Assembly (NCBI GenBank): GCA_963764165.1 | Contig: CAVXRD010000002.1 | Location: 2,432,001-2,496,000, forward strand | DNA length: 64,000 nucleotides | From: an uncultured Verrucomicrobiae bacterium | Lineage (GTDB): Bacteria > Verrucomicrobiota > Verrucomicrobiia > Limisphaerales > Palsa-1400 | Reading direction: 5' to 3' | Shown: one piece after another, positions 42,972 through 64,000 of the stretch | Numbering within the stretch: the stretch's first letter is position 1 | How the letters are laid out: every line of letters begins with the position of its first letter | The notes under the pieces: generated by a model | What the model was told of the DNA's origin: nothing | Database searches by the model: none | What the model saw: only the letters and a program-made list of their open reading frames with translations | Program-made: the position numbers and the translations under genes

Positions 42972-43183
42972 CCGGTTGTCAGTAACGGAAAGAGTGGGCG
43001 ATTGCAAAACAAATTAGGGAATCCCCCCGCTTGCATTCAAGACTGGGCTGATTGTCTGTCAAGAAGGAATAATAGCCGCTTCTTCCCCGCGAATCATCTC
43101 GTGGCATGCGCCTGCGCCAGAAGCGTTGGACTCGCTGGGAACCAATGCGCACCCAATGCCCCGGAACAAACAATTGCTTTAGC

Positions 43184-43237: not shown

Positions 43238-43744
43238 ATGAAATCAACAAATTGCAAATTTCCTTGTCTCGTGACGGTCGTGCTGGCAGCTCTCCTTGGT
43301 GCTGGTTGTAAAACGCCCCTTCCCAAGCCTTTAACGCTTCAGATTAAAAAGACGGCGACAGGCTCGGTAGATGTTGATGTGGTTGGAGTCCAGCCGAGCG
43401 ACAAAGACCAATTAGCCAGCATGAAGCCCGATCAGTGGTGGATGCAGCCGCCCAACGACATCATCCGCAAAGGGTACGGTGACATGATGGTCACCACTAA
43501 TTTTAAGGATGGTGACACTTGGGTCATTGATCCAACCAACCCCATTTGGAGCAAGTGGTTGGGCGCGGGAGTTAAGGAGTTGATGGTCATCGCCGATCTG
43601 GATCGCGTGCATTTCAACGACAACTCTGATACGCGCCGGAAATTTGTCACCCTGTCGCCTTCCGCATGGCCGAAGGATCGGCGAGTCGAGATCCAGGTGC
43701 AGGACGGCCGGGTGTGGGTGATGACGCCAGAAGTCGCTAAATAG
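43238..43744 (+). CDS. Lipoprotein, TssJ-like
   Basis: Lipobox LLGAG-C; SVDVDVVGV...QLASMKPDQWW resembles the xVxVDxV...L..M....WF pattern of TssJ-type lipoproteins; 168 aa; heads a cluster containing tssKLM. Confidence 0.6.
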   Translation: MKSTNCKFPCLVTVVLAALLGAGCKTPLPKPLTLQIKKTATGSVDVDVVGVQPSDKDQLASMKPDQWWMQPPNDIIRKGYGDMMVTTNFKDGDTWVIDPTNPIWSKWLGAGVKELMVIADLDRVHFNDNSDTRRKFVTLSPSAWPKDRRVEIQVQDGRVWVMTPEVAK

Positions 43745-43822
43745 CTGGCGTCTTCATGACTGGCGCGCGGATATTGGGGCGGGTCTGCGCGCGGCGGCAC
43801 TCCACCTCCTCCCAAACACACC

Positions 43823-46780
43823 GTGCCAACTTTCGGAGAATATGAAACTATTGGCGAACCGGTTGCCTCGCAGGAAGATGCCGGCCACCAGTCAACCGTC
43901 TGGATAGCGAAGAAAAGCGGCCCTCAGGACGGGCGGTTCTACGCTGTTAAAGTCTTCACTCCACAGCAAGATTCCAAACCCCGCCCCGGCGGCCAATTGG
44001 AAGCGGATCTGGGGCTGGAGTTTCTCGAAGGGGTCAAGCTGGTCAAAAAGGCGCAAGGCGCCCAGCCGCAGTGGCTCACGCCGATCTATGGCTTCGCGCG
44101 CACTCCCGACGGACAGAGCGCCTGGTATGCAACCGACTTCTACGGCGATGCTGCCTCCCGGCTTTCGCGTTCGGCGCAGTCTTATATTTCCCGGGGCGGC
44201 AGGGTGGATGGGCCAGCCCTGCGGCGGATAGTTTACAGCATTGTGTCCGGATGTCTGTCTTTGCAGCGGTCTCGCGGTTATTCTCATGGCAATCTCAAGC
44301 CGGGCAACATTTTTCCTGTGGGCCGGCCACGTCCCTTGCGCAAGACGAATTTTCATCTGGCGGACGCCGCTGCGGTGGCCCCGGCCCAATTGGCTGGCGT
44401 GCGGCCTTCGGATCGCCAGACAGTCGACAAATTGCTCCAGCAAACAATTGAAGCCCGGGACTTGCGAGCCGTGGGAGAGTTGATTCTGCAATTGGTCGAA
44501 GGGCGGTTGGTGGCGAATAGCGACGATATTGATTATCCCATTCCCAACTCTGGAGCCTGGGAGCGTCTCGGCAAGGAACGGGAGGCATGGCGCACCCTGT
44601 GCAATCGGCTGATCGATCCTCAATTGTCGATTGAACAAGTCAACCTCGACCTCCTGGAAAGGCAGTTTCGCCCAAGCATTATCGATAACCAATTGCCGGT
44701 GATTATTGGCACGGTTTTCGTTGCCGCCCTCCTGGCTGGAGGAGGCTACCTGGGATGGAAGTCTTACGTTAAACACAAGGAAGAGATTGCGCGCAATGAT
44801 TCCCAGAAATACACGAATGCGCTGGAGCGGGCGAATACTGCGCTAGCCTCCAATGAACTTGACAGGGCGCTGGTTGCGGCGACCGAGGCCGAAACAATTA
44901 GGCCGGGGGATTCCGCCGCGGGAAATATTATAAGCCAGGTCAAGGAAGCGAAGAAGAAAACTACGGCCGCCGAGGCCGAGAGAGTTTATTCAGCGTCGAT
45001 GACCAAAGGGAATGCGGCTTTGGTAAAGTCCAATTTCCTAGTGGCGATTTCCGAATTCCAGAATGCGTTGAAGATCAAGGAGGGTGATCCTGATGCGGCG
45101 GCGGGCCTCAATGCAGCGCAAAAGGGGAGCGCGTATAACGACGCAGTCGCGGACGCCCGAAAAGCGCTGGAGTCGGGCGATTTCAACAGCGCGCAACAGG
45201 CGGCAGACAAAGCCAGAGGGATCAGGCCGAGCGGCGCCGAGGTCACTGAACTCGACAATCAGATAAAGGCCGATCGGCAAAAGGCTGCGGACTACGCTAT
45301 AGCACAGGGCAAGCTCAAGGAGGCCAATGAGTTAAAGAAGTTAGCTAACGCTCTTGCGCGGGCGAAGAAAGCGCTAGAGGCGAATGAACTTTCCGATGCC
45401 CTTGCCGCGGCGACCGAGGCCGAAACCATTAGGCCGGGGGATTCCGCCGCGGGAAATCTCATAAGCCAGATCAAGGAAGCGCAGAACAAGGAAGCAAAGA
45501 AGAAAACTACGGCCGCCGAGGCCGAGAGAGATTATTCTGCGTCAATGACCAAAGGGAATGCGGCTTTGGTAAAGTCCAATTTCCCAGTGGCGATTTCCGA
45601 ATTCCAGAATCCTGATGCGGCGGCGGGCCTCAATGCAGCGCAACAGGGGAGCGCGTATAACGATGCAGTCGCGGACGCCCGAAAAGCGCTGGAGTCGGGC
45701 GATTTCAACAGCGCGCAACAGTCGGCGGACAAAGCCAGACGGATCAGGCCGAGCGGTGCCGAGGTCACTAAACTCAACAATCAGATAATGGCCGATCGGC
45801 AAAAGGATGCGGACTATGTCGAAGCTATGAGCCGAGGAGAGGCCGCCTTGAAAAAATTCGAATACACGGCGGCGATTTCAAATTTCATCAATGCTGTGGC
45901 CTTGAACTATAAGCAAGATAATGCCAAAGCGCAGACCCAGCTTGAGAAGGCCAAAGATTCAGGGTGCGCTCATTTTGTCGAGCTCGGCCGAAGTGCGTTG
46001 CTCTCGGGTAATTCAGCCAAAGCGCTGGAGTATGCTTTGGAAGCCCAGAAATTTAAGGCGACCAGCCCCGAGGCAAGCAAACTCATTAATGATATCAATA
46101 GTCCACCGATACCGCCCGCGCCAATAACCAATGTAATTGCCGTAAATCCGCCGACTACAAATCCACCGCCCGCCCCAGTTGGCGCTCCTTTTGCGACCAA
46201 TATGATCGGAATTGATTTTCTATGGGAACCAACCATTGCAAAATATGTCGCCGCAACGGAACTTTCTCACCAACAATATACAAAGTTGTGCCAGGAAGCC
46301 GGCAAGAACCCCCAGCAGCAAGATGAGCCGGTGAGGCCCTACCAACCAGAGAAATTCGCCTCCCAGAAATTCGCGAAGCAATTTGCAGCCGACCTTGATG
46401 CTTTCGCTTTTTCCAAGACAAAGTGCCACCTGCGTCTGCCCTCGCTGGCGGACTACTGCACCTTGGCTGAAGTGGATATCAATGGCAATAAGCCGCATAT
46501 TTTGGATTTCGACAAAAAGAAAGATGATAAGGAGTTGGTTGAGTTCGCGACGCCCGATCCCGCAGACGTTAATTCTGGCCCAACGAATGATTATCATGGC
46601 TTGATATACTTGATTGGTAACGTCGCCGAATGGACGAGCGATTACGAAAACCCGTTTGGCAGTAGCTATGCGCACATCGGAAGTTCTGCCAAAATCACCC
46701 TGCTTCGAAAACCAAGTCCCGCCGAAACCGTTGGCGTTCGGTTGATTCTGGAACCCGAGCCGCAACAAGCACGAAATTAG
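43823..46780 (+). CDS. Ser/Thr pseudokinase - TM - TPR-like repeats - FGE-sulfatase-like domain (PpkA-like/TagR-like fusion)
   Basis: YAVKVF, HGNLKPGNI, LADAA, DLRAVGEL; TM VIIGTVFVAALLAGGGYLGW; helical repeats; C-terminal TNMIGIDF..ATELSHQQY..LRLPS..PTNDYHGL..LIGNVAEW..VGVRL. Confidence 0.8.
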   Translation: MPTFGEYETIGEPVASQEDAGHQSTVWIAKKSGPQDGRFYAVKVFTPQQDSKPRPGGQLEADLGLEFLEGVKLVKKAQGAQPQWLTPIYGFARTPDGQSAWYATDFYGDAASRLSRSAQSYISRGGRVDGPALRRIVYSIVSGCLSLQRSRGYSHGNLKPGNIFPVGRPRPLRKTNFHLADAAAVAPAQLAGVRPSDRQTVDKLLQQTIEARDLRAVGELILQLVEGRLVANSDDIDYPIPNSGAWERLGKEREAWRTLCNRLIDPQLSIEQVNLDLLERQFRPSIIDNQLPVIIGTVFVAALLAGGGYLGWKSYVKHKEEIARNDSQKYTNALERANTALASNELDRALVAATEAETIRPGDSAAGNIISQVKEAKKKTTAAEAERVYSASMTKGNAALVKSNFLVAISEFQNALKIKEGDPDAAAGLNAAQKGSAYNDAVADARKALESGDFNSAQQAADKARGIRPSGAEVTELDNQIKADRQKAADYAIAQGKLKEANELKKLANALARAKKALEANELSDALAAATEAETIRPGDSAAGNLISQIKEAQNKEAKKKTTAAEAERDYSASMTKGNAALVKSNFPVAISEFQNPDAAAGLNAAQQGSAYNDAVADARKALESGDFNSAQQSADKARRIRPSGAEVTKLNNQIMADRQKDADYVEAMSRGEAALKKFEYTAAISNFINAVALNYKQDNAKAQTQLEKAKDSGCAHFVELGRSALLSGNSAKALEYALEAQKFKATSPEASKLINDINSPPIPPAPITNVIAVNPPTTNPPPAPVGAPFATNMIGIDFLWEPTIAKYVAATELSHQQYTKLCQEAGKNPQQQDEPVRPYQPEKFASQKFAKQFAADLDAFAFSKTKCHLRLPSLADYCTLAEVDINGNKPHILDFDKKKDDKELVEFATPDPADVNSGPTNDYHGLIYLIGNVAEWTSDYENPFGSSYAHIGSSAKITLLRKPSPAETVGVRLILEPEPQQARN
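44876..45816 (+). repeat. Intragenic duplication of a TPR-like block
   Basis: 44876-45296 is repeated near-identically at 45407-45816, with a 24-nt deletion and a 15-nt insertion in copy 2. Confidence 0.9.
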
Positions 46781-46986
46781 CCGTGAGATCGATGGTCAAT
46801 AAGACAGATGCGCAGTCATTTGTAAAAAAGAGGACAAAACACTTGACGCCTCTCAGGGAATTCTACTACAAAAGCATCGTCTTCAGGATGATGTGCGTTG
46901 AGCAAGCACTGTCGCGGGTGTGACCGTAATATCCTGACGGTCAAGAATTAGCTGTTATGGGGCAACAGAGCAGAATAAGTCTAAAA

Positions 46987-49900
46987 ATGAAAAAACTACA
47001 TTTCAAGATCCTGGCTGTTTCAACGTTAGTTCTTGCCCCATCGGTATTTGCCAATCCTTTGGGGGGTATCGTTGCCAGCGGTAATGCCGCCATTCATCCC
47101 AGCGGGAGTCTTCTGACGATTACCCAAACCACGCCCACGGCCATCATCAACTGGAGTTCTTTCAACATTGGGGCGGGTCAGTCTACCATCTTCCAGTTCA
47201 CCGGCGCGGCCGGGGCCAATTCCTCGGTGCTCAACCGAGTCAATTCAACTAGCCCATCGGTTATTTCAGGTTTGCTGGAATCTACTTTCGGCCCCAAAGG
47301 GGCAATCGGCGGCACGGTGTTGGTGCTAAATCCTAATGGCATCCTTTTTAGCTCCACCGCAACTGTCAACGTCGGCAACCTGACCGCTTCTACTCTGGGC
47401 ATTTCGGATAGCGCGTATCTCAAGGGGGGAACCTTGTCGTTGGCCGGCGGTTCGACCGCTCCGGTCGTCAACGAAGGTTACCTTCATGCCTCGGGCGATA
47501 TTTTCCTGATTGCCAACAGTGTCCAGAACTCAGGTGCGATTGATGCCGGCAACACGGCGGGTCTAGCGGCCGGCAACAGTGTCACTCTCATGCAATCGGG
47601 TTTGGAGCGTCTCACTGTCAATGCCAGCCAGCCGGGCGGCGCGTCCACGGGCGTGAATAACACCGGCGCCATCCAGACGGCGGTGGCGGATCTGGCGGCC
47701 GCGGGAGGCAATATCTACGCGCTAGCCATTAATAATGGCGGCGTCGTGCGCGCCACCACTGTAACGGAATCGGGCGGACACATTTATCTGCAAGGCAATG
47801 GCGGCAAGGTTGTCAACTCCGGCACCTTGGATGCCTCGGCCACCAAGGGCGCGGGTGGCGCCGTTGAAGTCACCGGTGGCAATGTTTCTTTGACAAGCAG
47901 CAGCGTCATCAACGCCAGCGGCCCTTCCGCCGGCGGCACGGTGCTGGTGGGCGGTGGCTCCCACGGGACGGATTCATCGATTCCCGATGCCACTGCGACG
48001 ACGGTGGCCGCGGGCGCCACGATCAATGCCAGCGCCACCGCCGACGGCAACGGCGGCAACGTGGTTGTTTGGGGAAACAGCGATACCTTTGCGGGAAACG
48101 TTACCACCAAGGGCGGGGTTTCCGGGGGTAATGGCGGTCATGTGGAGGTTTCAGGGGATACGCTCGGTTTTAAGGGCATGGTTACCACAACTGCGCCCAA
48201 GGGCAGTTCAGGTATGTTGCTGCTGGATCCGGTTGACGAAACGATTGACAACAATCCTGCCGACGTAGGTGCTACTCAATGGAGCACTCTCATCGCCCAG
48301 AACACGCCTCAAACGATCACGGCCAACCATTTGACTCTTGAGGCCACACTGGGTGGCTCTCCTTCCGTTGATTTGGCTTCTGCCCAAAATTACACCTTTA
48401 TTGCGGAATCGACTCTCGTAGACACGGCGATTATAAAAAACACCCAAGCTACTTCTTCGACGACTCTGAGCCTTCAAAGCGGCGGCTCGATGACAATTAG
48501 CGGGGCAATCAACCTCGGCCCGACCGGGGGCACTCCGGTGGGCACAATAAGTTTGATGAGCGCTGGCAACGTTAGCATCGGAGCCGACCTGGCCGCTTCC
48601 ACTGTCAGCGTCCAATCCGGCTCCACGGGCCTGGGCGGGAACATTTCCTGGGCAGCCAACAACTTGACAGTCTCCGCTGACACCCAGATTTACCAGGCCG
48701 GCGACGCTGGCAGCACCACGTCATACGCGGATCTCAGCGGCAATGTGAGCGGGCACGCTCCCCAGTTCTTGAACGCGGCGGGCAACGACATACCATCATC
48801 GTTTGTATTCGAGCAAGACGCCGCTATTGGTGGGGCGGGCCAGACGCCGCTCCCGGCGATCACTCAGTTTGGCCCTTCGAGCAGCCCTGTCAGCAGCTTG
48901 GTCAATGCCTCGGCGAACCCAATGGCCTACACCGTCCAATCTGACGGAGGCGACGTAACGCTGGCAAGTGGCGTAGGGGCAAATGTGGCGGGGAGTGCCT
49001 TGACGTTGAACGCAAACGGAACAGTCAATCTCAATGACAGTCTCAATTTAGCGTCCCTCGGTGTCACTGGCCCGAGCATTAACTTCAACGGCGGCAGCGT
49101 GACCACGGTCGGTGGACAGATTTATAGCGGTGCGTCCACTTTGGTCAGCGACGAGGTCAATACTGGCACGACAATCAACTACACCGGGACAGTCGACGGG
49201 GGTTTCAGCCTGAAGGATATCGGCTCGACCACCTTCGGCGAAGCAGTGGGCGGGACGGCACCCCTAGCCTCGGTGACGGACACCGGAACGACGGCGATCA
49301 ACGGGGGGAGCGTGGCGACGAGCGGGGCGCAAACTTACAATGATCTAGTGACACTGGGAGCCAACACTGCATTGAACAGCGGGACCATTGAACTGGCCGG
49401 AGTGGCGGGAGCGGGCTTCAATTTGACGTTGAACAACACGGGCGCGGCGACCTTGAACGGAGTGGAGAGCGGGATCGGCACCCTGACGGCCTCAGCTAGC
49501 GCAGGCGCCTCGCTGACCGTGGACAACACAATTTCGGCCGGATCGCTGGTTGACAATCAAACCACGACGCTGAATGGCACGGGCGGCAGCGAGACCATCA
49601 CCACGACAGGCGGCGACCAGAATTACACTAAGACAGTGACGCTAGGAGCAAACACGACGCTGAACAGCGGGACCATTGAACTGGCCGGAGTGACGGGGGC
49701 AGGCTTCAATTTGACGTTGAACAACACGGGCGCGGCGACCTTGAACGGGGCGGAGAGCAGCGTCGGCACCCTGACGGCCTCGGCCAGCCCAAGTGCCTCG
49801 CTGACCGTGGATAACACAATTTCGGCCGGATCGGTGGTTGACAATCAAGCCACGACGCTCAACGGCACGGGCGGCAGCGAGACAATAACCACCACGGGCG

Positions 49901-52900
49901 GCGACCAGGATTACACCAAGACAGTGACCTTGGGTGCCAACACGACGCTGAATAGCGGGACCATTGAACTGGCCGGGGTAACGGGTGCAGGCTTCAATTT
50001 GACGTTGAACAACACGGGCGCGGCGACCCTGAACGGAGCGGAAACCGCCGTCGGCACCCTGACGGCCTCAGCCAGCCCGGGTGCATCGTTGACGGTGGAC
50101 AACACAATTTCGGCTGGATCGCTGGTTGACAATCAAACCACGACGCTGAATGGCACGGGCGGCAGCGAGACCATCACCACGACAGGCGGCGACCAGAATT
50201 ACACCAAGACAGTGACGCTAGGAGCAAACACGACGCTGAACGGCGGGACCATTGAACTGGCCGGAGTGACGGGGGCAGGCTTCAATTTGACGTTGAACAA
50301 CACGGGCGCGGCGACCTTGAACGGGGCGGAGAGCAGCGTCGGCACCCTGACGGCCTCGGCCAGCCCAAGTGCCTCGCTGACCGTGGATAACACAATTTCG
50401 GCCGGATCGGTGGTTGACAATCAAGCCACGACGCTCAACGGCACGGGCGGCAGCGAGACAATAACCACCACGGGCGGCGACCAGGATTACACCAAGACAG
50501 TGACCTTGGGTGCCAACACGACGCTGAATAGCGGGACCATTGAACTGGCCGGGGTAACGGGTGCGGGCTTCAATTTGACGTTGAACAACACGGGCGCGGC
50601 GACCCTGAACGGAGTGGAAACCGCCGTCGGCACCCTGACGGCCTCAGCCAGCCCGGGTGCATCGTTGACGGTGGACAACACAATTTCGGCTGGATCGCTG
50701 GTTGACAATCAAACCACGACGCTGAATGGCACGGGCGGCAGCGAGACGATCACCACGACAGGCGGCGACCAGGATTACACCAAGACAGTAACGTTGGGAG
50801 CCAATACGGTGTTGGGTGGTGCTACCATTGAACTTTCCGGAGTGACGGGGGCAGGCTTCAATTTGACGTTGAACAACACGGGCGCGGCGACCTTGAACGG
50901 GGCGGAGAGCGGCGTCGGCACCCTGACGGCCTCAGCCAGCCCAAGTGCCTCGCTGACTGTGGATAACACAATTTCGGCCGGATCGGTGGTTGACAATCAA
51001 GCCACGACGCTCAACGGCGCAAGCGGCAGCGAGACCATAACCACCACGGGCGGCGACCAGGATTACACCAAGACAGTGACCTTGGGTGCCAACACGACGT
51101 TGAATAGCGAGACTATTGAACTGGCTGGCGTGGCTGGGGCAGGCTTCAATTTGACGTTGAACAACACGGGCGTGGCGACATTGAACGGAGCGGAGAGTGG
51201 GTTGGGGGCTTTGACCGCCAACGGCACTGGAAGCTTGGTGGTGAACAACACGATTGCCGGAGCGTCGGTGAGCGACAACGAAATCACGGCGCTGAGTGGC
51301 GGCAGCGTGGCGACGACAGGAACGCAGACCTACAGTGACGCCGTGACATTGGGAGCCAATGATGTGCTGACCAGCACCGGGACGGGAGTGGCTGGAAACA
51401 TCACGTTTGCCTCGCCTGTGAATGGAGCCGACAGCCTGACGGTGAACACATCTGGAACTACGACCTTTAGCGGGGCGGTGGCTGTTCAGAGCCTGACAGT
51501 GGACCAGAGCGACACCCTTGGAAGCATTGCTTTGAATGGCGGGGCAGTCACGACCACGACCGGGCAGACGTATGACGCTGCGGTGACGTTGGGAGCCAAC
51601 ACAGTGTTGAAGGATACAGGAACTGGAGCGATCACGTTTGGCCCGTCGGCGACGATAACAGGGACGAGCGAGACGCTGGACGTGGAAACCACAGGAGCCA
51701 CGGCGGCAACCTTTGGGGGGGCGGTGAATGTTCAGAGTCTGACAGTAGAGCAGAGTGACACCCTCGGAAGCATTGCTTTGAATGGCGGATCGGTCACGAC
51801 CACGGCCGGCGGGCAGACGTATGGCGGCGCGGTGACTCTGGGCGGAAACACTGCGGAAACTTTGACAGCCGGAACAGTAACCTTCGGCGGGCCGGTGAGC
51901 GAGGCGAGCGGCCAGAACAATAACCTGACGGTCGGCGGCGCGCTAATCGTTAACGGCGGCAGTGTCAACACCGGCACAGGCAATCAAACTTATGGCAGCA
52001 CCGTGACTGGCAGTGGTGATGTGGCGCTCACCGGGGGCGCCTTGCAGGTCACTGGCGCCTTCACCGCGCCAAACGGAACTCTTACGGCAAACGGCGCGCT
52101 GACCGCAGGGAATATCGTATCTGCCCAAAATGTCGGTCTGACCACAGCCACTATTGCTGGCGATTTAACCGCGACGACAGGAAGCGTCGGTTCAAGCGGG
52201 ACGATCAGCGCACAAAACATTTCAGCCAGTCAAGCCATCGACGTGGGTGGCATTGGCAACAGCGGTAATGTCACTGCCGGAACGAGCGTAACTGTGAACG
52301 GTTCAGCCAACTTGACTGGAGCGCTGACAGCCACCGCGGGCAGTGTGGCCACTGGTAATGTAAATGCGGCGTTGATTACCGCCGCGACCGGGGTATCGGT
52401 GAACGGGAACGCCACCGTTACCGGCGCAATCTCCTCAACGACTGGCAATTTAGCCGTCGGCGGGGCCAACAACACAGTTCAAGCTGGCTCGGTCACAGCC
52501 ACGGCAGGCAGCGTGAGTTTGACAGGAACAACGACCACGGGAGCTGTCACCGCAGGCGAGAATGTCAATTTGACTGGCACCACCACGGCGACAACGATTA
52601 GCACCGGATCCAGCGGAAGCATCGCGTCAAGCGGTGGAAATCTGACGGCCAGCGCTTTGATGGCTGGCGAGGGAATTACAACCGGGAACGCGAACGTCAG
52701 CGGCGTGATCAATGCCGGCAATGGCGGATTGTCCGCACCGGGCGCCACAATCAGCGCCTCGTCCATCTCGGCTGGAACCAGCGTTACGACCGGGAACGTC
52801 ACCGCAGGCTCCATTGCGGCGGGAACAGGGGTGACAGTGGCCGGGAACGCCACCGTTACCGGCGCAATCTCCTCAACGACTGGCAATTTAGCCGTTGGCG

Positions 52901-54261: not shown

Positions 54262-54279
54262 TTGGGCTTAATCCAAGCT

Positions 54280-56181: not shown

Positions 56182-56230
56182 CGAGGTGATAGCTGGTCTC
56201 GAATGGGCAAACGTTTGACTGCAGATATCC

Positions 56231-57148
56231 ATGTCGCGACTCAGCGAACAAGAATCAAAACAAGTTAATGATCTAGCCTCTCGCCTGCGGTTGATTCAGG
56301 CGGATAGCGCTTTTGCATCAGCGGAAAAGCGGCGGGATTATCTTCAGGAAGAACTCGCCCGATCGGTGAATACGGTGTCCGGGGCCGCGCGCAAAGACTT
56401 CCTGGCCGCGTTGTTGTGCCGATTCCCTGTCGGGGGCCAGATTCTCCAAGCCAAACCCGCTGCCGCCGCCGTACCTGCTCCGCCTTCGCCCCCGCCTCCG
56501 CCTTTGACTTCGGACGAATTGCTGGAAAAGTTCATTGCCAGCGCCAGTCAATTGCCAGCCGACAGGCGGGCTGCCTTCTCAGAACGGCTTGGCCGGGCCG
56601 GATTTGCGTGGGCCGATAAGGCGGCCATTGAACTCGATGTTGGCTCTGAATTGCGGCAACGACTCGGCCTGAAGCCCGAGCAAAAAGTGAAATTGACGCG
56701 CTTAGTCCAAGTGGTGATTCTCCTGGCTGAACGCGTGTCCCAGCTCGAGCAAGCCACTTTCAAGACCTGGGGCGAATTGAAAAAAGCAGGCCAGGCCAAG
56801 CGTTCCGCCGAATTTCGAGCAGCCGCAGCCCTGTATTTAGCGGGCGAGGACGACTCATTGGAGGCGCTTATGCAGGGCTTGGTTGCGCTGGTGGCGGCCC
56901 TGCAGGCTGCGATGCTGCGCGCCACCGTCGAGTTTGAGCGGGAATTGATCGTTCGCCTGGGGCCCCAGCAGATCGAGAATTTGGTGACCGAAGAGGGTGG
57001 CGTCGGATTTCTCAAGAATAAAGGGGAGCGGTTGTGGAAAAAATACGCTGAATTGGCCGCGGATTTTACAACCCCGGGAGTCATTGATCGGCAAGTGAAA
57101 GACCTTTATGTGAAGACCGTGGAGGCTGCCATGCGGGGCAACCGGTAA
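56231..57148 (+). CDS. TagH/Fha C-terminal-domain-like protein without an FHA domain
   Basis: LQAAMLRA....ELIVRLGPQQIE......GFLKNKGERLWKKYAEL resembles the helical C-terminus of TagH; directly upstream of tssK; no FHA motif visible. Confidence 0.55.
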   Translation: MSRLSEQESKQVNDLASRLRLIQADSAFASAEKRRDYLQEELARSVNTVSGAARKDFLAALLCRFPVGGQILQAKPAAAAVPAPPSPPPPPLTSDELLEKFIASASQLPADRRAAFSERLGRAGFAWADKAAIELDVGSELRQRLGLKPEQKVKLTRLVQVVILLAERVSQLEQATFKTWGELKKAGQAKRSAEFRAAAALYLAGEDDSLEALMQGLVALVAALQAAMLRATVEFERELIVRLGPQQIENLVTEEGGVGFLKNKGERLWKKYAELAADFTTPGVIDRQVKDLYVKTVEAAMRGNR

Positions 57149-57154
57149 TTCCGT

Positions 57155-58516
57155 ATGCAAATCCATTGGCACGAAGGTCTGTTCCTGCAGCCGCACCACT
57201 TGCAAACAATGCAGAGGGATGCAATGCAGGAGATCCGAACGCTGAGGTCGTTGATTTTTCCCTTCAGTTTCGGGATCGTGGAGAGCAGGCTTTCTTACGA
57301 TGATTTGGCGGACGGGCGAATTCGCTACGAACGCCTGCGGGCCGTCATGCCCAGCGGATTGGAGGTTTCATTTCCAGACGACGCCTCCCTTCCGGCGCTG
57401 GACATCAAGGCCGAATTAGCTCGCAGTTCCAGCGCATTTGAAGTGCTTCTGGCGGTTCCGCTCTGGGCGAAAAACCGGGCCAACTCATTTCGAACCGGGG
57501 ATCGTCCCGATCCGCGGGTCAAATTGCTTTATGTTCCGTCTGAGACGGCTCAGGTCATGGACGAGAATACGGGGGACAATCCGCAGACCATAATTGTGCG
57601 CAAGGTAAATGCGCGCATCGCCGTCAAAGGGGATGACTTGTCGGATATGGAGTGGCTGCCTCTGCTGCGTGTGCAGCGCGCGACCGGCGCCGAGAATGCC
57701 AAGGCCCAGCCGGATCCGGAGTTTGTCCCTCCATCGCTTCTCTTGTGCTCCGCACCCATTCTGCACGAAATGATGCGCGAGCTGGTTGCCCAGCTCAACG
57801 CCTGCCGCAAGGATTTGCGCATCAAGGTGGCGACGGGCGGGCTGGCATTGGAGATGAAATGGGAATTAACCATGAAGCTCGCCACGCTCAACAGAGTGTG
57901 CGGGAGTTTGCCCGCGCTGGTCGACGAGGGCAAAGCGCCGCCGTTTGCGATTAACCTTCGATTGCGTGAATTGCTGGGTGAACTGGTTGCCTTGCAGCCG
58001 CAAAAGACCACCTTCGAGTGCGAGGCTTATGATCACCTTAACCCTTACCGTTCCTTCAAGGAGCTGGACCAAAAGATCAGGGAGTTGATTCGAGTGACCA
58101 AAGGCACGCCTCCCAAAACCGTTCTTTTTACCGGCAACCCGGGGCTGTTGCGGGCGGAGTTGCAGCCGGCGGACTTCAGCACTCCCACCGCCTACTATTT
58201 GGGGGTGCAAACCCAGGCCGACCGAACCAAACTGGCCCTCTACCTTAGCGACGGCAACAAGTTCAAGCTGATGCCGCGCAGCATGGAGCAAGTGGCCATC
58301 CTTGGGCTGGAGCTCAAAGAGGAGAATTACCCGCCGCTGGATTTGCCTGCGGTCAATAATTTGATTTATTTCCGCCTCGTTCCCTCCAGCAATGTGCGCC
58401 GCTGGGATCAAATGCGGCAGGACAACGCCGTATCCTTGGTTTGGAACAACGCGGAGTTTAATTTGAGCGGAGCCACGTTTACCCTGTACATGATTCTTCC
58501 CTCGGGGGCCGTATGA
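57155..58516 (+). CDS. tssK: Type VI secretion baseplate subunit TssK
   Basis: IHWHEGLFLQPHHLQ, FSFGI, AVMPSG, DPEFVPPSL, YDHLNP..SF, PP.DLP....LIYFRL. Confidence 0.9.
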   Translation: MQIHWHEGLFLQPHHLQTMQRDAMQEIRTLRSLIFPFSFGIVESRLSYDDLADGRIRYERLRAVMPSGLEVSFPDDASLPALDIKAELARSSSAFEVLLAVPLWAKNRANSFRTGDRPDPRVKLLYVPSETAQVMDENTGDNPQTIIVRKVNARIAVKGDDLSDMEWLPLLRVQRATGAENAKAQPDPEFVPPSLLLCSAPILHEMMRELVAQLNACRKDLRIKVATGGLALEMKWELTMKLATLNRVCGSLPALVDEGKAPPFAINLRLRELLGELVALQPQKTTFECEAYDHLNPYRSFKELDQKIRELIRVTKGTPPKTVLFTGNPGLLRAELQPADFSTPTAYYLGVQTQADRTKLALYLSDGNKFKLMPRSMEQVAILGLELKEENYPPLDLPAVNNLIYFRLVPSSNVRRWDQMRQDNAVSLVWNNAEFNLSGATFTLYMILPSGAV

Positions 58517-59205
58517 AGCTGCTGGATAATTACGAAGCGCTCTTTCAATACATGTGCCTGTTGAGCCGCATCGCCAAGGCCCGGCCCGAGGCGCATCCGG
58601 AGTATGCCCAGGTTCGCGCGGATATCAGGGCGTTGCTCGAGGATCTTGAGCGCGGCGCGGCCGCCGATGTGCGGCTATCCAACCAGATCAAGCGCCTGGA
58701 GCTGCCGGTGGTCTTCTTTATTGACAACATCATTTGCACCAGCAAGCTGAAATTTGCCCAGCAGTGGGCCGGTGCGCGCCTGGCCATTGAGAAACGCAAC
58801 GAACTGGCCGGTGACGAGCGGTTTTTCGATTTTGTGACACAAGACCTGCCAGACACAAGCGAAGAGGCGGCTGAGCGGCTGGCAGTCTATTACACCTGCT
58901 TTGGCCTTGGATTCACCGGCATGTACGTGTCGCAGCCCAAAGAGATACGCAACTTGCAGGAGCAGATTTTTCCGCGCATCCGCCAATGGGCCGATTCGGA
59001 TCGGGTGCGAATCAGCGAAGAAGCCTACAAGCCCACCGACACGCGGACTCTGACCGAACCGGCCAGCAACAAAATCATCTTTGTGGCGATTCTCTTTGTA
59101 TTTCTGTGCTTGGCCAGCCTGCTGATTTATTGCGGGCTTTATCGCGAGGCCTCTTCGGACCTTAGCCAGTCGATAAAAGCAATCAAAACACACGCGCAAC
59201 CCTAG
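58513..59205 (+). CDS. tssL: Type VI secretion membrane subunit TssL (DotU family), no OmpA-like domain
   Basis: LPVVFFIDNII....W...RLA.....LAGDERFF, AVYYTCFGLGFTGMY, C-terminal TM; ATGA overlap with tssK. Confidence 0.88.
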   Translation: MKLLDNYEALFQYMCLLSRIAKARPEAHPEYAQVRADIRALLEDLERGAAADVRLSNQIKRLELPVVFFIDNIICTSKLKFAQQWAGARLAIEKRNELAGDERFFDFVTQDLPDTSEEAAERLAVYYTCFGLGFTGMYVSQPKEIRNLQEQIFPRIRQWADSDRVRISEEAYKPTDTRTLTEPASNKIIFVAILFVFLCLASLLIYCGLYREASSDLSQSIKAIKTHAQP

Positions 59206-59223
59206 TTGCGGCACCGCGATATC

Positions 59224-62200
59224 ATGGACGACGACTCCAAAACGAATTCAATCATAAAAATGGGCCTGTGCGGCCTGGGACTGGGCGTGCTGGCGCCGTT
59301 GGCGATATTGCACAATACCACCGGCCTTTGGATAGCATTGGGCATTCTCGTGCTGGGACTTCTTCTGTTCGGAGGTTACTTCCTGTGGAAACGAGCGGCC
59401 GCCAACAGAGAAAGCACGAATTTCAGGCAAGGGTTGGAAGATGTCACAGGGGCTCCCAAAACGGTCAGTGACCCGCAACAGCGGGCCAAGCTGGACGACG
59501 TGCGGCGCAAGTTCCAAAAGGGGCTCCAAGAGTTCAAGAGCCGCGGCAAAGACATCTACAAGCTCCCTTGGTTTGTCATCATCGGCGAATCCGGCTCGGG
59601 AAAGACCGAAGCCATCCGTCATTCGGGCATCGATTTTCCGCCCGGCTTGCAGGAGGAGCTGCAAGGCTCCGGCGGCACCATCAACATGGACTGGTGGTTC
59701 ACCAACCGCGGCATTATTCTTGACACTGCGGGGGCCATGATTTTCCGTCATGAGGCGCTCACCGGCAAAGGCGACTGGCAGCCCTCCTCCGAATGGCGCG
59801 AGTTTCTAAAGCTGCTCAAAAAATCGCGGCCGCAATGCCCGATCAACGGCCTGATGCTGGTTCTCTCGACCGAGAGCTTAATCAAGGATTCGGCGGATCT
59901 CATTGCAAGGAAGTCGAGCATACTCGCCCAGCAGCTGGATTTGATCCAGCGGACGCTGGACGTGCGGTTTCCGGTTTACATGCTGGTAACCAAGAGCGAT
60001 TTGATGGAGGGCTTCCGCGAGTTTTCCGACAGCATATCCGATCCGCTCATGCAGCATCAGATGTTCGGCTGGTCAAACCCGGACCCGTTGGACGCGCCGT
60101 TCCGGCCTGATTTGATCGAGCAGCATTTGGAGGCAGTGGCCGAAAAAGTCCGGCGGCGGCGCCTGGCGCTGCTGCGCGAATCAAGCGCGGGCGATACTCA
60201 GTTGTTTTTTCGCTCGTCCAGCGGAGCGCCCCGGGCTTCAGACGGGACGGATTCGCTGTTCGCTTTGCCGGCGAGCATAAAACGCCTGGCCCCGCGCTTG
60301 CGCCGCTACTTGGAGACAATTTTTGTCGCCGGAGAATGGTCCGCCAAGCCGGTTTTTTTGCGCGGCGTTTACTTTACATCATCCATGCGCGAGGGATCGG
60401 CGCTGGACGAGGCGCTGGCCCTGGCTTCCGGGCTGCCGTTGGACCAACTGCCCGAGGCCCGCGAGAGAGAGAGCAAGGCCTTTTTCTTGAGAGACTTGTT
60501 TCACGAAAAAATATTTCGCGAAAGCGGCCTTGTCACGCGGGCCACCAACACCCTGAGAATGCTTCGGCAAAAGCAATTGCTCATTTTCGGCTCGGTGGCC
60601 TTGGCGCTGTTGCTGGTGCTGGTGTTCGCCTGGTTCGGCTACAGGAATCTGCAAGACACCGTCGGGCGCGAAGCAAGCTATTGGAAGGCGGGAACGACGA
60701 ATTGGACGGACGGACACTGGGATCCAGGCAGCCTCGTTGAAGCAGGCACTGCGAATCCGCTCCTATATAGTCTGGCGGCCCAAAAGCGCATTCCTGGACC
60801 GGACTTGCCGGTGGTTGATTACTACAGCAATCTGTTTAGCAAAGTGTCCACCGACCTCGCTGTGAGCTGGATTTTTGGCCCTTTCACCATGTTCGATGTC
60901 GGGGAGATCAAAAAGGATCGTCCGCTGGCGGCGAGCATTCTCTTTGAACGAGGGTTGCTCGAACCGCTGGTGGATAAAACGCGGAAAAAAATGGCCAGCC
61001 TGCCGAATTCACGCCCCGCGCCCGATGATAAGTCAGACGTGGCCCGTCACCGCGATGCGCTGCGGGCGCTGATGAGGCTGGAGACCGACCGGTTCGCGAT
61101 GGGATCGACCAAAACGACCAACGTCCAGGAGTACCTCCACGATTTCGTTACCTATTTAACCGAGAAAGAATACCAGCCCGAGCCTGTGCTGGCGGATTTA
61201 TCTGTCAAGGCCTTCTCGACTTGGCCGCCACCGTCGATTGTGCTTACCAATGGCACGAACCTGGCCAACAATCCGGCTATCAACCGGGGGTTGGAGGCGT
61301 TCCGGCGCGCAAATCAAAAAAACGAGAGCAACATCGTAGCCAAAGTGATCGCTCTTAACACTTTTGTTGATCAGCTTGACAGTTATAGGAAGGTGGAAAA
61401 GGACTGGCTGGCCGCGCCAGCCGAGCCGTGCGACATGGCGAAGGCGGCAAACCGTACGGTCGAGGGGGCGCGATTGGCGCTGCTCCAGACGAGCAACACC
61501 ATGGCTGGCACAAATACCATTGGCGCCATGTACCAACGCTTGCAGGCGGAGGCCGAAGCTGCTTCGGGCTCCTCGTTTTCCGATATTACATCCAACGTGC
61601 CACCCGCTTTCAGGGACAAACAAATCTTCGTTGAAATCGCCGGCAAGTTGAAGGGTTTTGCCACCGAGGCAAAAAGGAGCGTCGAAACCAATTATCAGGC
61701 CCGGCAAACAGTGTCCTCAGATTTGGATCGCGATTTGCTAGGGAGCGGAGGCTTCGACAAGCCAGCCTACCAGAACCGCCAGAGGCTATACCAGGACGTT
61801 TGTGATTTGCTCAGCAACAACGTTACGGTCACAGACGCGCTCATCGGCGATCAATGGCGGGAATTTAAGAAGATTGACGCCAATGTGGCTGTTCTTAGCA
61901 ATGACCTGGTAAGCTATCGCGGTCCGTTGAAGGAGGAGGTATTGGGGGCCTGCAACAAGCTCTCGGCGGACAAGATTCTGCTGTTGCAAGATACATTTGT
62001 GGCCCAGTATTTGCGGATCGTCAAAGCTGGGCTTAGCAACTTGACGATGGGTGGCTACGCCACCGTAGAACAAGCGAGCAACGCCGCTGTTTGGTTTACA
62101 CGGATTGCAAAAGACCTCGCGGTAACTGAACCGTTGGGAAAGCAAGCTGCTCAAGTTCTACCCCTAAAGCCGCTTTTGGACGCTTCCGTGGAGGCGGCCT

Positions 62201-62793
62201 TGATTCAACAGGCCGGTTTCCCGGTGCGCCTCATCAATACCGGCAGGACGATGGGCGCGGCAGACTTAAAAATCCTTCAGGCTTTTGCTTCGGGCCTTGG
62301 AACGGAGTTGGGAGGCGCCACGCGTGCCAACTATGCAAAGATTGCCTCGGATTTGCTTGAGCAGGACGTGCCGATTCAGGGAACGCTCTCTTTTGTGACC
62401 CCTTCAAATAACGAGGAGGATATTAAATTGGTCGCACAATATAAATTGCTTCTGGCCTCCCCTGCCGACCTGACTGCTGAGAGCGCGGTTGGTGCCTGGA
62501 AGGACGACCTCTTGGTGTCGGGGGAGCATGTTCTTCTATCCTCTAAAATTGATTCACCTCTATTCATCCCGGTGCAATATCAGCATTCGCGTAACGACAC
62601 CTTCACAAAGATCGTGTCATTTCAAGATTGGGGATTTATCCGGTTGATCAATTACTATAAGGGGAAGCCGAGCGCGGGTGGGAAAGTTTGGTCCATCGAA
62701 ATTCCCAGTTCAGACCCTTCGACTAAAGGCACTTGGCATTTTCGGCTTGAATTCAGCAAGCCGCTCCCAACCTTGGACGAATGGCCGAAGTAA
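59224..62793 (+). CDS. tssM: Type VI secretion membrane subunit TssM (IcmF family)
   Basis: Two N-terminal TMs, YKLPWFVIIGESGSGKT, MDWWF, LDTAG, PINGL, RFPVY..VTKSDL..GF, LRGVYFTS, FFLRDLF, third TM, C-terminal QDWGFIRL. Confidence 0.92.
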   Translation: MDDDSKTNSIIKMGLCGLGLGVLAPLAILHNTTGLWIALGILVLGLLLFGGYFLWKRAAANRESTNFRQGLEDVTGAPKTVSDPQQRAKLDDVRRKFQKGLQEFKSRGKDIYKLPWFVIIGESGSGKTEAIRHSGIDFPPGLQEELQGSGGTINMDWWFTNRGIILDTAGAMIFRHEALTGKGDWQPSSEWREFLKLLKKSRPQCPINGLMLVLSTESLIKDSADLIARKSSILAQQLDLIQRTLDVRFPVYMLVTKSDLMEGFREFSDSISDPLMQHQMFGWSNPDPLDAPFRPDLIEQHLEAVAEKVRRRRLALLRESSAGDTQLFFRSSSGAPRASDGTDSLFALPASIKRLAPRLRRYLETIFVAGEWSAKPVFLRGVYFTSSMREGSALDEALALASGLPLDQLPEARERESKAFFLRDLFHEKIFRESGLVTRATNTLRMLRQKQLLIFGSVALALLLVLVFAWFGYRNLQDTVGREASYWKAGTTNWTDGHWDPGSLVEAGTANPLLYSLAAQKRIPGPDLPVVDYYSNLFSKVSTDLAVSWIFGPFTMFDVGEIKKDRPLAASILFERGLLEPLVDKTRKKMASLPNSRPAPDDKSDVARHRDALRALMRLETDRFAMGSTKTTNVQEYLHDFVTYLTEKEYQPEPVLADLSVKAFSTWPPPSIVLTNGTNLANNPAINRGLEAFRRANQKNESNIVAKVIALNTFVDQLDSYRKVEKDWLAAPAEPCDMAKAANRTVEGARLALLQTSNTMAGTNTIGAMYQRLQAEAEAASGSSFSDITSNVPPAFRDKQIFVEIAGKLKGFATEAKRSVETNYQARQTVSSDLDRDLLGSGGFDKPAYQNRQRLYQDVCDLLSNNVTVTDALIGDQWREFKKIDANVAVLSNDLVSYRGPLKEEVLGACNKLSADKILLLQDTFVAQYLRIVKAGLSNLTMGGYATVEQASNAAVWFTRIAKDLAVTEPLGKQAAQVLPLKPLLDASVEAALIQQAGFPVRLINTGRTMGAADLKILQAFASGLGTELGGATRANYAKIASDLLEQDVPIQGTLSFVTPSNNEEDIKLVAQYKLLLASPADLTAESAVGAWKDDLLVSGEHVLLSSKIDSPLFIPVQYQHSRNDTFTKIVSFQDWGFIRLINYYKGKPSAGGKVWSIEIPSSDPSTKGTWHFRLEFSKPLPTLDEWPK

Positions 62794-62811
62794 GCGTTTA
62801 CCAGCCCCATT

Positions 62812-64000
62812 ATGAAAGGCTTTTTAAACAAACTAGGCGGCACGGCGGGAAACCTGGGTGGGCCGCGCCTGGCGCTGGCGGCGTTTGGCAAGCACCCAGG
62901 CTGGCCCGATTTTATGCCGGGCATTGGCGTGGACACTGAATTGCTCGTCGGAATCGAGCAAACGCTTTACAGAGGTGGCATACGCGGACAGATTTCCTCC
63001 GGCGCCTGGGAGAAACTTGATGCGGAAAAGCGCCAGGATGGTTTTGACCATGTCTTTGCGTGGTTTCAGAACGGACAGATGGTTCTCGGACTCCTGTGGT
63101 CTTCAAAGGATCAAGCCGGGCGCGCCAAATATCCGATGGCCCTTTGCATCGACGGTGGGGCAATGCCGGCGAAATTCATGCTGGCCGAATTGCTTCCGGG
63201 CATGACGGCGCTCCGGCAGGCTTGCAAATCGGCCACGACCGTGGAGCAGGTGACTGAGCTGTGCCGTTCAGCCCAGGAGCAATTGCGCGGCAAGGGTGCG
63301 GCTGAATCGGAAAAGGCGCCCGAGCCGCCGCCGCTCAGCGACCGTCGCCGCTTTCTGGAACATCCAGACTTCGGCCCGGACAAAATCGGTTTGTTGCGTC
63401 TGACGCATGAATTAAGCGGCCAGTTTGATCTCAGTGGCGGCGATCAGGCATCGGCGCCAGCGTCGCGCTCGTTGCATTTGCGGGTGCCGCTCGCGGCGGC
63501 GCCACCCGAAACGGCTCTACTCGTGTGGCCGGCTTTTCTGCGCGCCGCAGTGGGGGCGGCTCCTTCGATAGTATTGCTTTATCGCGACGGCGCGGCGTGG
63601 CTGGACGTCATCGTCGGCCCGCCCCAGGCCGATGATTTCTTTTGTCTCCAGGCGGGTGTAAAAGCGCTGCCGTTGGTGACCCAAATCCCGTTTGAACTGA
63701 CCGGGGAGAGCAGGCAGTTGCTCCCCAAAATCGAGGCGCGATTCCTGGGGCAGGTGCAACCCCAATCGCAGTCCCTCTCGCCGCCTGCCGCCCCGGCCTC
63801 GCCAAAACTGTCGCCCTCGGTTCCACCGCCGGCTTCTCCGGTGGACGGCGGAACTCCAAAATCATCAAAATCACAATTCATTGCCATCGGAGGGGCGATC
63901 GGCGCTTTGGTGCTGGCGGGCGGACTCTACCTGGCAATTCACGCTGTCCATCAGAAAGAGACAGCGGTGGCCGGCCTGCGAGAAAAGGAACGATTGTTGG
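62812..64000 (+). CDS. TagF-like protein with Pro-rich linker and transmembrane helix (3'-partial; absent from the ORF track)
   Basis: Translated by hand from ATG 62812 with no stop to the window end: AFGKHPGWPDF and LWSSKDQAGRAKYPM resemble the TagF GK.P..GDF and S.D..GR.FP motifs; TM FIAIGGAIGALVLAGGLYLAI at 63877-63939. Confidence 0.72.
   Translation, partial: MKGFLNKLGGTAGNLGGPRLALAAFGKHPGWPDFMPGIGVDTELLVGIEQTLYRGGIRGQISSGAWEKLDAEKRQDGFDHVFAWFQNGQMVLGLLWSSKDQAGRAKYPMALCIDGGAMPAKFMLAELLPGMTALRQACKSATTVEQVTELCRSAQEQLRGKGAAESEKAPEPPPLSDRRRFLEHPDFGPDKIGLLRLTHELSGQFDLSGGDQASAPASRSLHLRVPLAAAPPETALLVWPAFLRAAVGAAPSIVLLYRDGAAWLDVIVGPPQADDFFCLQAGVKALPLVTQIPFELTGESRQLLPKIEARFLGQVQPQSQSLSPPAAPASPKLSPSVPPPASPVDGGTPKSSKSQFIAIGGAIGALVLAGGLYLAIHAVHQKETAVAGLREKERLL

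Follow-up and report, generated by a model that had tools for sequence, protein, structure and literature searches.

What is a two-partner secretion pair doing in the middle of a run of type VI secretion system (T6SS) membrane-complex genes? The question is raised by a 64,000-nucleotide stretch of the genome of an uncultured Verrucomicrobiae bacterium (hereafter the window, G000:C2:2432001-2496000; host genome of 7.0 Mb, 97% complete), in which tpsA (46957..54261, + strand) and tpsB (54280..56181, +) immediately precede a tagH-like gene (56231..57148, +), tssK (57155..58516, +), tssL (dotU; 58513..59205, +) and tssM (59224..62793, +). We propose that this is probably a T6SS cluster with a position dedicated to an exchangeable surface adhesin, 5' of tagH-tssKLM, and that the adhesin would provide contact with the target. 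The run is co-directional from tssJ (43238..43744, +) and the gene of a PpkA-like pseudokinase (43823..46780, +) to a tagF-like gene that is cut by the window end (62812..64000, +, the 5' part of a gene for an 828-aa protein). The intergenic gaps are 78 nt between tssJ and the kinase gene, 176 nt between the kinase gene and tpsA, then 18, 49, 6, -4, 18 and 18 nt from tpsA on; open reading frames (ORFs), strands and gaps all agree with those given in an earlier note on this DNA.

We looked at the same position in related loci. TssK loci came from the other genomes of the family (4 of 30), from a 400-genome sample of the order (22 genomes) and from a genome collection (30 loci). Thirty loci were counted, which belonged to the order or had a TssK at 60-64% identity and in which the DNA 5' of the tagH-like gene was in view; loci with a short 5' flank (L007=G286, L008, L009, G164, G175, G402 and G156) and 20 more distant ones (L017-L036, from Opitutales, Chthoniobacterales, Planctomycetota and others) were left out of this count. 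The genes tagH-like, tssK, tssL, tssM and tagF-like formed a constant core across the loci. Just 5' of the tagH-like gene, tpsAB was found in 13 of the 30 loci, a different cassette, consisting of an outer-membrane barrel gene and a propeller/Ig-repeat gene, in another 13, and neither of them in four; the arrangement of the window is in this way shared by part of the relatives, the others having the second cassette or none. The tpsAB genes were co-directional with the core in 12 loci (two with tpsB alone in view) and divergent in one, between tagH and tssA-B-C. Both genes of the barrel/Ig cassette were in view in 10 loci and the Ig end alone in three. As for the empty positions, the kinase gene abuts tagH in G027 (same genus as the host) and G154, and unrelated genes are present there in G055 and G114. 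The tpsAB pair was found at the same place down to TssK identities of 31-33%, across several families.

The distribution of the two cassettes was then compared with that of the T6SS in the order sample, in which 28 of the 400 genomes, related to each other and many of them incomplete, had a TssK or TssC. TpsB was present in 9 of these 28 genomes and in 29 of the 372 others, the barrel in 9 of the 28 and in 3 of the 372, and no sampled genome had both TpsB and the barrel (0 of 400). In view of this relatedness and incompleteness, p-values on these counts were given no weight. On the TssK tree the cassettes are interleaved, with at least four changes (10 changes when all states are used, 55 rows), and a single clade of barrel loci as opposed to tps loci was rejected by the approximately unbiased test (12 versus 10 rows; p-AU 1.8e-90). 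TssK and TpsB tree distances were correlated over 14 genomes, including three in which TpsB is on another contig (rho 0.69, with 0 of 5000 permutations as high).

The alternative cassette encodes a small 10-stranded outer-membrane barrel, then a protein of about 800-1600 aa with a propeller and Ig/PKD repeats. The barrel protein has a Pro-rich N-terminal linker and no Pfam match (L010, L015, L043, L045 and others, 5' of the tagH-like gene). The fold of its model (pLDDT 91) resembles those of OpcA, a Legionella porin and omptins (Z 21.6, 21.6 and 19.4); the superposition on the OpcA/omptin structure 2vdf (Z 21.6) had a root-mean-square deviation (rmsd) of 3.1 over 210 residues. It was found in 12 of 401 genomes, nine with a T6SS and the remaining three from one genus. 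The Ig-repeat proteins end in a short aromatic-Arg motif that also ends 123 of 6667 ORFs of at least 200 aa in the host genome, a count made with no chance control, and that is a candidate for a lineage-wide surface-sorting signal. Since this motif is common to so many host ORFs, the Ig-repeat partner probably uses the general surface-sorting route of the lineage.

The pair of the window has the features of two-partner secretion (TPS), that is, a TpsA with a TPS domain and an adjacent TpsB with POTRA and ShlB barrel matches. TpsA (2434 aa) matches PF05860 (E 4.3e-23, N-terminal 348 aa) and TIGR01901 (E 1e-15) and has a signal peptide called by eye; it is rich in Thr, Gly and Ala, contains no Cys and carries 96-aa repeats (6.4 copies) and 146-aa repeats (2.6 copies), a composition and repeat pattern suggestive of a filament with a beta-helical passenger. 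TpsB, an Omp85 family transporter, matches ShlB (E 1.5e-23) and POTRA_2 (E 3e-6) and was the single copy found in the host genome with this query. The profile scan of full-length TpsA returned no toxin family, a toxin tip was not recognisable, and tpsB begins 18 nt past tpsA with no space for an immunity gene; the CdiA/CdiB/CdiI assignment was thus rejected. A motif common to the TpsA C-termini of T6SS-adjacent loci was also sought, and none was found among the 26 C-termini compared. The GC content and the GC content at third codon positions (GC3) of tpsA (0.60/0.69) and tpsB (0.55/0.65) are inside the range of the tss neighbours (GC 0.53-0.61, GC3 0.61-0.71). No repeat family joined both flanks of tpsAB among the 20 largest of 49 direct families and the 25 longest of 34 inverted pairs; the claim that tpsAB is flanked by no repeat scar is therefore upheld for the families viewed, and base composition shows no shift either. 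A promoter and terminator scan gave counts at shuffle level, and no promoter was called in the 176-nt gap before tpsA.

We next considered the tail. The earlier note had seen no tail gene in the window, which is correct: each tail gene searched is single-copy and lies just past the window end. In the coordinates used below, base 1 of L001 is window position 62500 and base 1 of L002 lies 18000 bases beyond the window end. The tagF-like gene ends at L001:2799, and a full tail module begins 1.3 kb past the window and extends to a PAAR gene within about 21 kb. It comprises tssA (L001:2806-3834, ImpA_N E 4.5e-26), a methyltransferase gene (L001:3854-5416), tssB (L001:5577-6110, VipA E 5e-57), tssC (L001:6119-7606, VipB E 6e-138), hcp (L001:7713-8198, Hcp E 2e-39), tagJ (L001:8218-9063, ImpE E 5e-46), tssE (L001:9099-9593, gp25 E 1e-12), tssF (L001:9586-11499, TssF E 1e-207), tssG (L001:11463-12479, TssG E 4e-95), clpV (L001:12491-15196, TIGR03345, 1244 bits), three candidate antibacterial effector ORFs (L001:15206-17417; LysM and Ntox46-like matches below cut-off, pesticin-like with Pesticin E 3e-9), vgrG (L001:17455 to L002:720, VgrG E 3e-208) and PAAR (L002:2782-3078, PAAR E 1.4e-24). 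All 13 T6SS core genes plus PAAR are thus present in one 44-kb cluster, and each core gene searched has one copy in the host genome. With a baseplate (TssEFGK, VgrG, PAAR) and a tail (Hcp, TssB, TssC, TssA, ClpV), the host encodes, judging by gene content, a complete TssJLM-type contractile T6SS of subtype i.

Some features of the tail region deserve mention in their own right. One or two S-adenosylmethionine-dependent methyltransferase genes lie between tssA and tssB in many clusters (L001:3854-5416 (-); L016:12683-14269). The region L001:17455 to L002:2438 encodes a VgrG with an acidic linker and an extension rich in Gly, Ala and Ser at its end, followed, ahead of PAAR, by a 337-aa ORF of no known family and a DUF6931 ORF; the extension and the two ORFs are possibly a specialised effector with its immunity or adaptor genes. 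About 6 kb past the cluster (L002:9429-12301), a membrane sensor-like ORF overlaps a Ser/Thr kinase ORF and is followed by a sigma-factor-like ORF; the first two, labelled by eye, look like one gene in two frames. Second, divergent sheath genes are found in several genomes of the order (L074:7903-9777, L111:10541-12505 and L080:8954-10363), two of them being apparent TssB-TssC fusions (625 and 655 aa).

The membrane complex of subtype i was recognised from TssJ by fold, from TssL and the N-terminal half of TssM by profile, and from the pattern of transmembrane segments (TMs). TssJ, a 168-aa lipoprotein, has no family profile match; the G-C of its lipobox is invariant in 15 of 15 aligned rows, and a model built from 15 homologues (pLDDT 85) has as its top folds SciN/TssJ (3rx9, E 1e-5) and 6hs7_F (Z 12.2, rmsd 2.9 over 121 residues), so that the earlier tssJ-like label is borne out by structure, TssJ folds being matched first. 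TssK matches PF05936 (E 2.6e-52) and TIGR03353 (E 9e-63), and TssL matches PF09850 (E 2e-25) and has one TM, which is C-terminal. TssM (PF14331, E 3e-53) has three TMs, a canonical cytoplasmic half and a divergent periplasmic half: TIGR03348 aligns over residues 27-477 only, IcmF_C is faint in the C-terminal homologues (2 of 26, E 0.049 or worse), and the C-terminus gave no significant match to PDB sequences or to one canonical TssM. A complex prediction with TssJ, the TssM C-terminus and TpsB scored 0.00 in a run that included no folded controls, and it was not used for or against binding.

The regulators of the cluster have diverged as well. The 985-aa kinase has an Asn at the position of the catalytic Asp, as do most of the 14 aligned rows (Asp in 2 of 14), and is likely a pseudokinase; a single TM (residues 293-311) is followed by a helical repeat stalk and an FGE-sulfatase domain (E 1e-3, and E 1e-9 to 1e-16 in homologues). 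The TagH-like protein corresponds to the C-terminal Fha domain alone, with a weak match to T6SS_FHA_C (E 0.003; matched in 9 of 18 homologues), and none of the 18 homologues matches an FHA family. A second TM-stalk-FGE architecture is found in the tagF-like protein, whose FGE domain lies past the window (E 2.7e-11); the tagF label is a weak one, given from position and from faint TagF_N matches in 2 of 10 homologues scanned (E 0.013 and 0.19). Among the cluster ORFs scanned, to which the PppA search was confined, no PppA phosphatase was found. The threonine phosphorylation pathway (PpkA-Fha-PppA) is thus not recovered, both the catalytic Asp of the kinase and the FHA domain of TagH being missing. 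TagR is an FGE-family protein, and the FGE domains borne by the two periplasmic stalks are natural candidates for sensing outer-membrane events. Upstream of tssJ and divergent from it, outside the part of the window covered by the earlier note, lies a gene for a 668-aa cytoplasmic kinase-fold protein (41001..43007, - strand). This protein has no Pfam or NCBIfam match, its ESM Atlas neighbours are mostly protein kinases (0.94-0.95), and the HRD motif is missing from the presumed catalytic-loop region in 10 of 10 rows; homologues (28-54%) accompany T6SS genes, within the cluster or next to it, in many loci of this order and as far away as Opitutales and Planctomycetota.

One relative, G125, led us to a separate question, namely whether the adhesin and the membrane complex can exist with no tail. 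This metagenome-assembled genome (MAG; 98% complete, 2% contamination, 380 contigs) carries tpsA, tpsB, tagH-like, tssL, tssM and tagF-FGE in this order (L096, L106; G125:C54), with the kinase-FGE gene and tssJ on the opposite strand, all frames open and sugar-related genes on both sides. The tssK gene is missing from its place, 22 nt separating the tagH-like and tssL frames, and TssK, TssB, TssC, TssF and VgrG were not found anywhere in these 380 contigs. Two tandem Hcp-domain genes are present on another contig (L107:2525-4017 (-), G125:C153); their products have N-terminal extensions resembling signal peptides, one ends in the C-terminal surface-protein motif of the lineage, so that Hcp may have been given a new use here as a protein for export. 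As TssK is a baseplate component, its loss together with the tail is coherent. A tail-less TssJLM-TpsAB machine may thus exist in G125, the evidence being this one MAG. TssM was found in 18 of 281 genomes searched, and only G125 and G025 had no tail matches; in G025 the TssM (25% identity) lies on a 3-kb contig and is uninformative on the tail. In G420, for which a completeness figure is lacking, tpsAB-tagH-tssKLM-tagF-tssA and tssJ-kinase lie on two contigs, and no TssC, VgrG, TssF or Hcp match was found. A metagenome scan with the G125 TssM returned one locus, 100% identical and with the same tagH-tssL junction, which probably does not represent an independent organism. Two further indications were discarded. 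The TssL of G125, considered as a sign of TssK loss through relaxed conservation, keeps 70%/61% of the conserved positions, and tail-bearing divergent loci keep as few (53 rows). G322 has no tail matches, but it is 70% complete with frameshifted genes, and its congener G299 has a TssC. In-frame stops or frameshifts occur in several tss genes of L042 (G022), L070 (G322) and L114 (G397), which are few-contig or incomplete assemblies, and may be sequencing errors rather than decay. The record of another locus, L011, is labelled with an acidobacterial genus, yet the locus falls among Verrucomicrobiota loci at 63% TssK identity; this may reflect a mislabel, a binning error or a transfer.

How far do these data favour a dedicated adhesin position? 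Several of them weigh against it. The position is empty in four of the 30 loci, that of same-genus G027 among them, and none of the 20 distant loci (L017-L036) shows a cassette at this place; the adhesin is therefore dispensable. Two Opitutaceae loci carry a distant tpsB-tpsA after tagF instead, and in G055, G114 and G175 TpsB is away from tssK on another contig. TpsB occurs in the 29 genomes with no T6SS mentioned above, and 19 of 20 further TpsB places (20 of the 35 not known as adjacent) have no T6SS gene nearby. Shared host ancestry can yield the tree correlation, kin not being independent, and a T6SS-specific TpsB clade found no support (9 changes on the tree, with 47 of 500 shuffles as low). 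The 176-nt gap 5' of tpsA also leaves space for a separate promoter. One rival is a co-regulated passenger, an adhesin for biofilm or surface attachment that has its operon and regulation in common with the T6SS and no role in contact or firing. Such a passenger agrees with the fact that TpsAB does well by itself in entire families of the order, with the empty positions and separated copies, and with a site beside a longer intergenic gap that could merely tolerate insertions. It does not readily explain why two unrelated cassettes, each an outer-membrane barrel with a long surface protein, occupy the same site and no third kind was seen between kinase and tagH, nor why the barrel hardly occurs outside T6SS genomes (9 of 12) or why the distant tpsBA of the two Opitutaceae loci lies elsewhere within the cluster; we hold it to be rather unlikely. 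Two further explanations fare worse. For a recent strain-specific insertion of tpsAB, or a CdiA/CdiB toxin pair in the cluster by chance, one may cite the absence of tpsAB from this position in G027. Occurrence at one location in 13 of the 30 loci, in several families, a composition like that of the neighbours, the lack of a scar and the co-divergence of TpsB with TssK speak against an insertion, the absence of a toxin domain, of Cys and of room for an immunity gene after tpsA against a toxin pair, and we regard both as very improbable. The earlier note had named a canonical tail immediately downstream, joined to a strain-specific insertion, as what would overturn its reading; the tail is there and the insertion is not.

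As its main reading, that note had suggested that the locus may be a TssJKLM core working with no contractile tail. The window itself, devoid of tail genes, and the divergent periplasmic half of TssM made this conceivable. The intact tssA, B, C, hcp, E, F, G, clpV, vgrG and PAAR genes directly downstream make it practically untenable for the host genome. The other suggestion of the note, an adhesin that would serve a divergent T6SS where cells meet, is compatible with the comparative data. A related idea concerns a physical hybrid, in which TssJLM and the TagH-like, TagF-like and pseudokinase-FGE proteins would position, anchor, gate or read the adhesin and could work with no tail; such a module would feed the T6SS in the host genome and be its sole remainder in G125. 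It draws on the intact G125 locus with neither tssK nor the tail families, on G420, with tpsAB and membrane genes and none of the four tail matches, and on Legionella, where homologues of TssL/TssM have been recruited to place a different secretion system (10.1101/315721). There is one good case only, G125 and G025 alone lacking tail matches among the 18 TssM genomes. A MAG can miss one cluster half, because clusters of the order are often divided into membrane and tail halves on separate contigs, and G420 retains tssK and tssA. G125 may represent a recent loss before decay; its TssM is on a long branch (0.99), one docking site for two unrelated barrels is hard to imagine, and the TpsA C-termini of T6SS-adjacent loci have no common motif; we consider the hybrid unlikely. 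It is possible, although doubtful, that the T6SS membrane complex, the TagH-like protein with no FHA and the two stalked FGE proteins form a contact module around an exchangeable outer-membrane adhesin. The adhesin would set target specificity and signal its engagement with no phosphorylation, and the module would have been kept after the loss of the tail and TssK in G125, as a tail-less TssJLM-T5bSS machine using a two-partner adhesin for placing or sensing.

If the adhesin position is what we propose, the system could work as follows. TpsA would cross the inner membrane by Sec, and TpsB would export it and hold it as a long filament, tpsAB presumably being co-transcribed with tssKLM. The filament would catch and hold neighbour cells, into which the T6SS would fire lysozyme-type and other effectors, as TasL does for the Vibrio T6SS2. 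In other lineages the barrel/Ig pair would do the same job, and the type of cassette may set the prey range. With the catalytic Asp gone from the kinase and the FHA domain from TagH, the steering of assembly would involve no phosphorylation; it would fall to two proteins of the inner membrane, each with a stalk that extends a TagR-like FGE domain toward the outer membrane.

Few factors are known through which a T6SS locates its target and keeps hold of it (TasL, TslA/OmpA, TagQRST and TssW). Compared with a TssJLM-type T6SS of subtype i, the present cluster has the same 13 core components, PAAR, TagJ, a TagH-like and a TagF-like protein and a PpkA-like membrane protein. It differs in that TssJ and the periplasmic half of TssM escape family profiles, the kinase has no catalytic Asp, TagH has no FHA, the kinase and TagF each have a TagR-like FGE domain as a fusion, further conserved genes encode a second kinase-fold protein and methyltransferases, and an adhesin cassette lies inside the membrane-complex run. 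This describes a T6SS architecture for the mostly uncultured Verrucomicrobiota, with a regulatory relay in which kinase activity and the phosphothreonine reader both seem to be gone. In the literature searched, which lacked most subscription papers and supplements, we found no paper on this Verrucomicrobiota T6SS/TPS system, nor any work that examines the function of a TPS within a T6SS cluster or of a TssJLM that has a TPS and no tail. The layout is not entirely new, contrary to what had been supposed at first: in Xanthomonas citri, haemagglutinin/haemolysin genes and a putative type Vb transporter, XAC4114, form a region (XAC4112-XAC4125) with T6SS genes on both sides (PMC6797930, PMC7777525). 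Those i3 clusters have no TssJ, and the portions of these articles at hand describe no functional link, exchangeable position or tail-less derivative; the accessible parts of PMC6653060, PMC3838355 and PMC10778856 add no functional link.

Comparable are the TagQRST-PpkA-Fha, TslA/OmpA and TssW-PpkA-Fha systems, in which outer-membrane or periplasmic factors act through TssM or a membrane kinase to place T6SS assembly where cells touch (PMC13584744, PMC12607579). The FGE domains at the stalk ends resemble TagR of the Pseudomonas TagQRST pathway, which a review lists as COG1262 (PMC13584744). Unlike in TagQRST-type systems, the relay seems to be non-catalytic here and the TagR-like domains are fused to other proteins; among the cluster genes there is no TagQ, TagS/T or PppA. 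Legionella DotU/IcmF are TssL/TssM homologues retained with no tail to place another secretion machine (10.1101/315721). The present host genome has a tail, in contrast, and G125 also retains TssJ and accessory proteins, and its partner would be of type Vb; if G125 is truly tail-less, it would stand beside DotU/IcmF as another case in which the T6SS membrane complex was co-opted, here with a type V system.

The closest functional parallel would be TasL of the Vibrio fischeri T6SS2, an adhesin which is encoded in the cluster, which is required for killing when the medium is viscous, and which is likewise a very large surface protein of a T6SS island with a proposed role in cell contact for killing (PMC9040878). 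TasL is a lipoprotein with fibronectin-III-like repeats, whereas TpsA has a TPS domain, its own TpsB and no Cys, and in relatives an unrelated barrel/Ig pair takes its place; TpsA may work like TasL without being a TasL. The genomes hold here a natural swap experiment, one position with two unrelated adhesin-like cassettes or none, and the target range could therefore be mapped onto the cassette type. Because this fixed position swaps or empties in relatives, and one apparently tail-less relative has kept adhesin and anchor, the data suggest that grabbing the neighbour is a built-in, exchangeable part of this T6SS weapon. A looser parallel to the division of labour proposed here is the ixotrophy of Aureispira, where a surface appendage catches and a T6SS kills (PMC12428579); the grappling hook is there a substrate of the type IX secretion system and the T6SS is atypical, with antennae, whereas here the putative catching arm would be a TpsAB filament or a barrel/Ig pair encoded within the run of membrane-complex genes.

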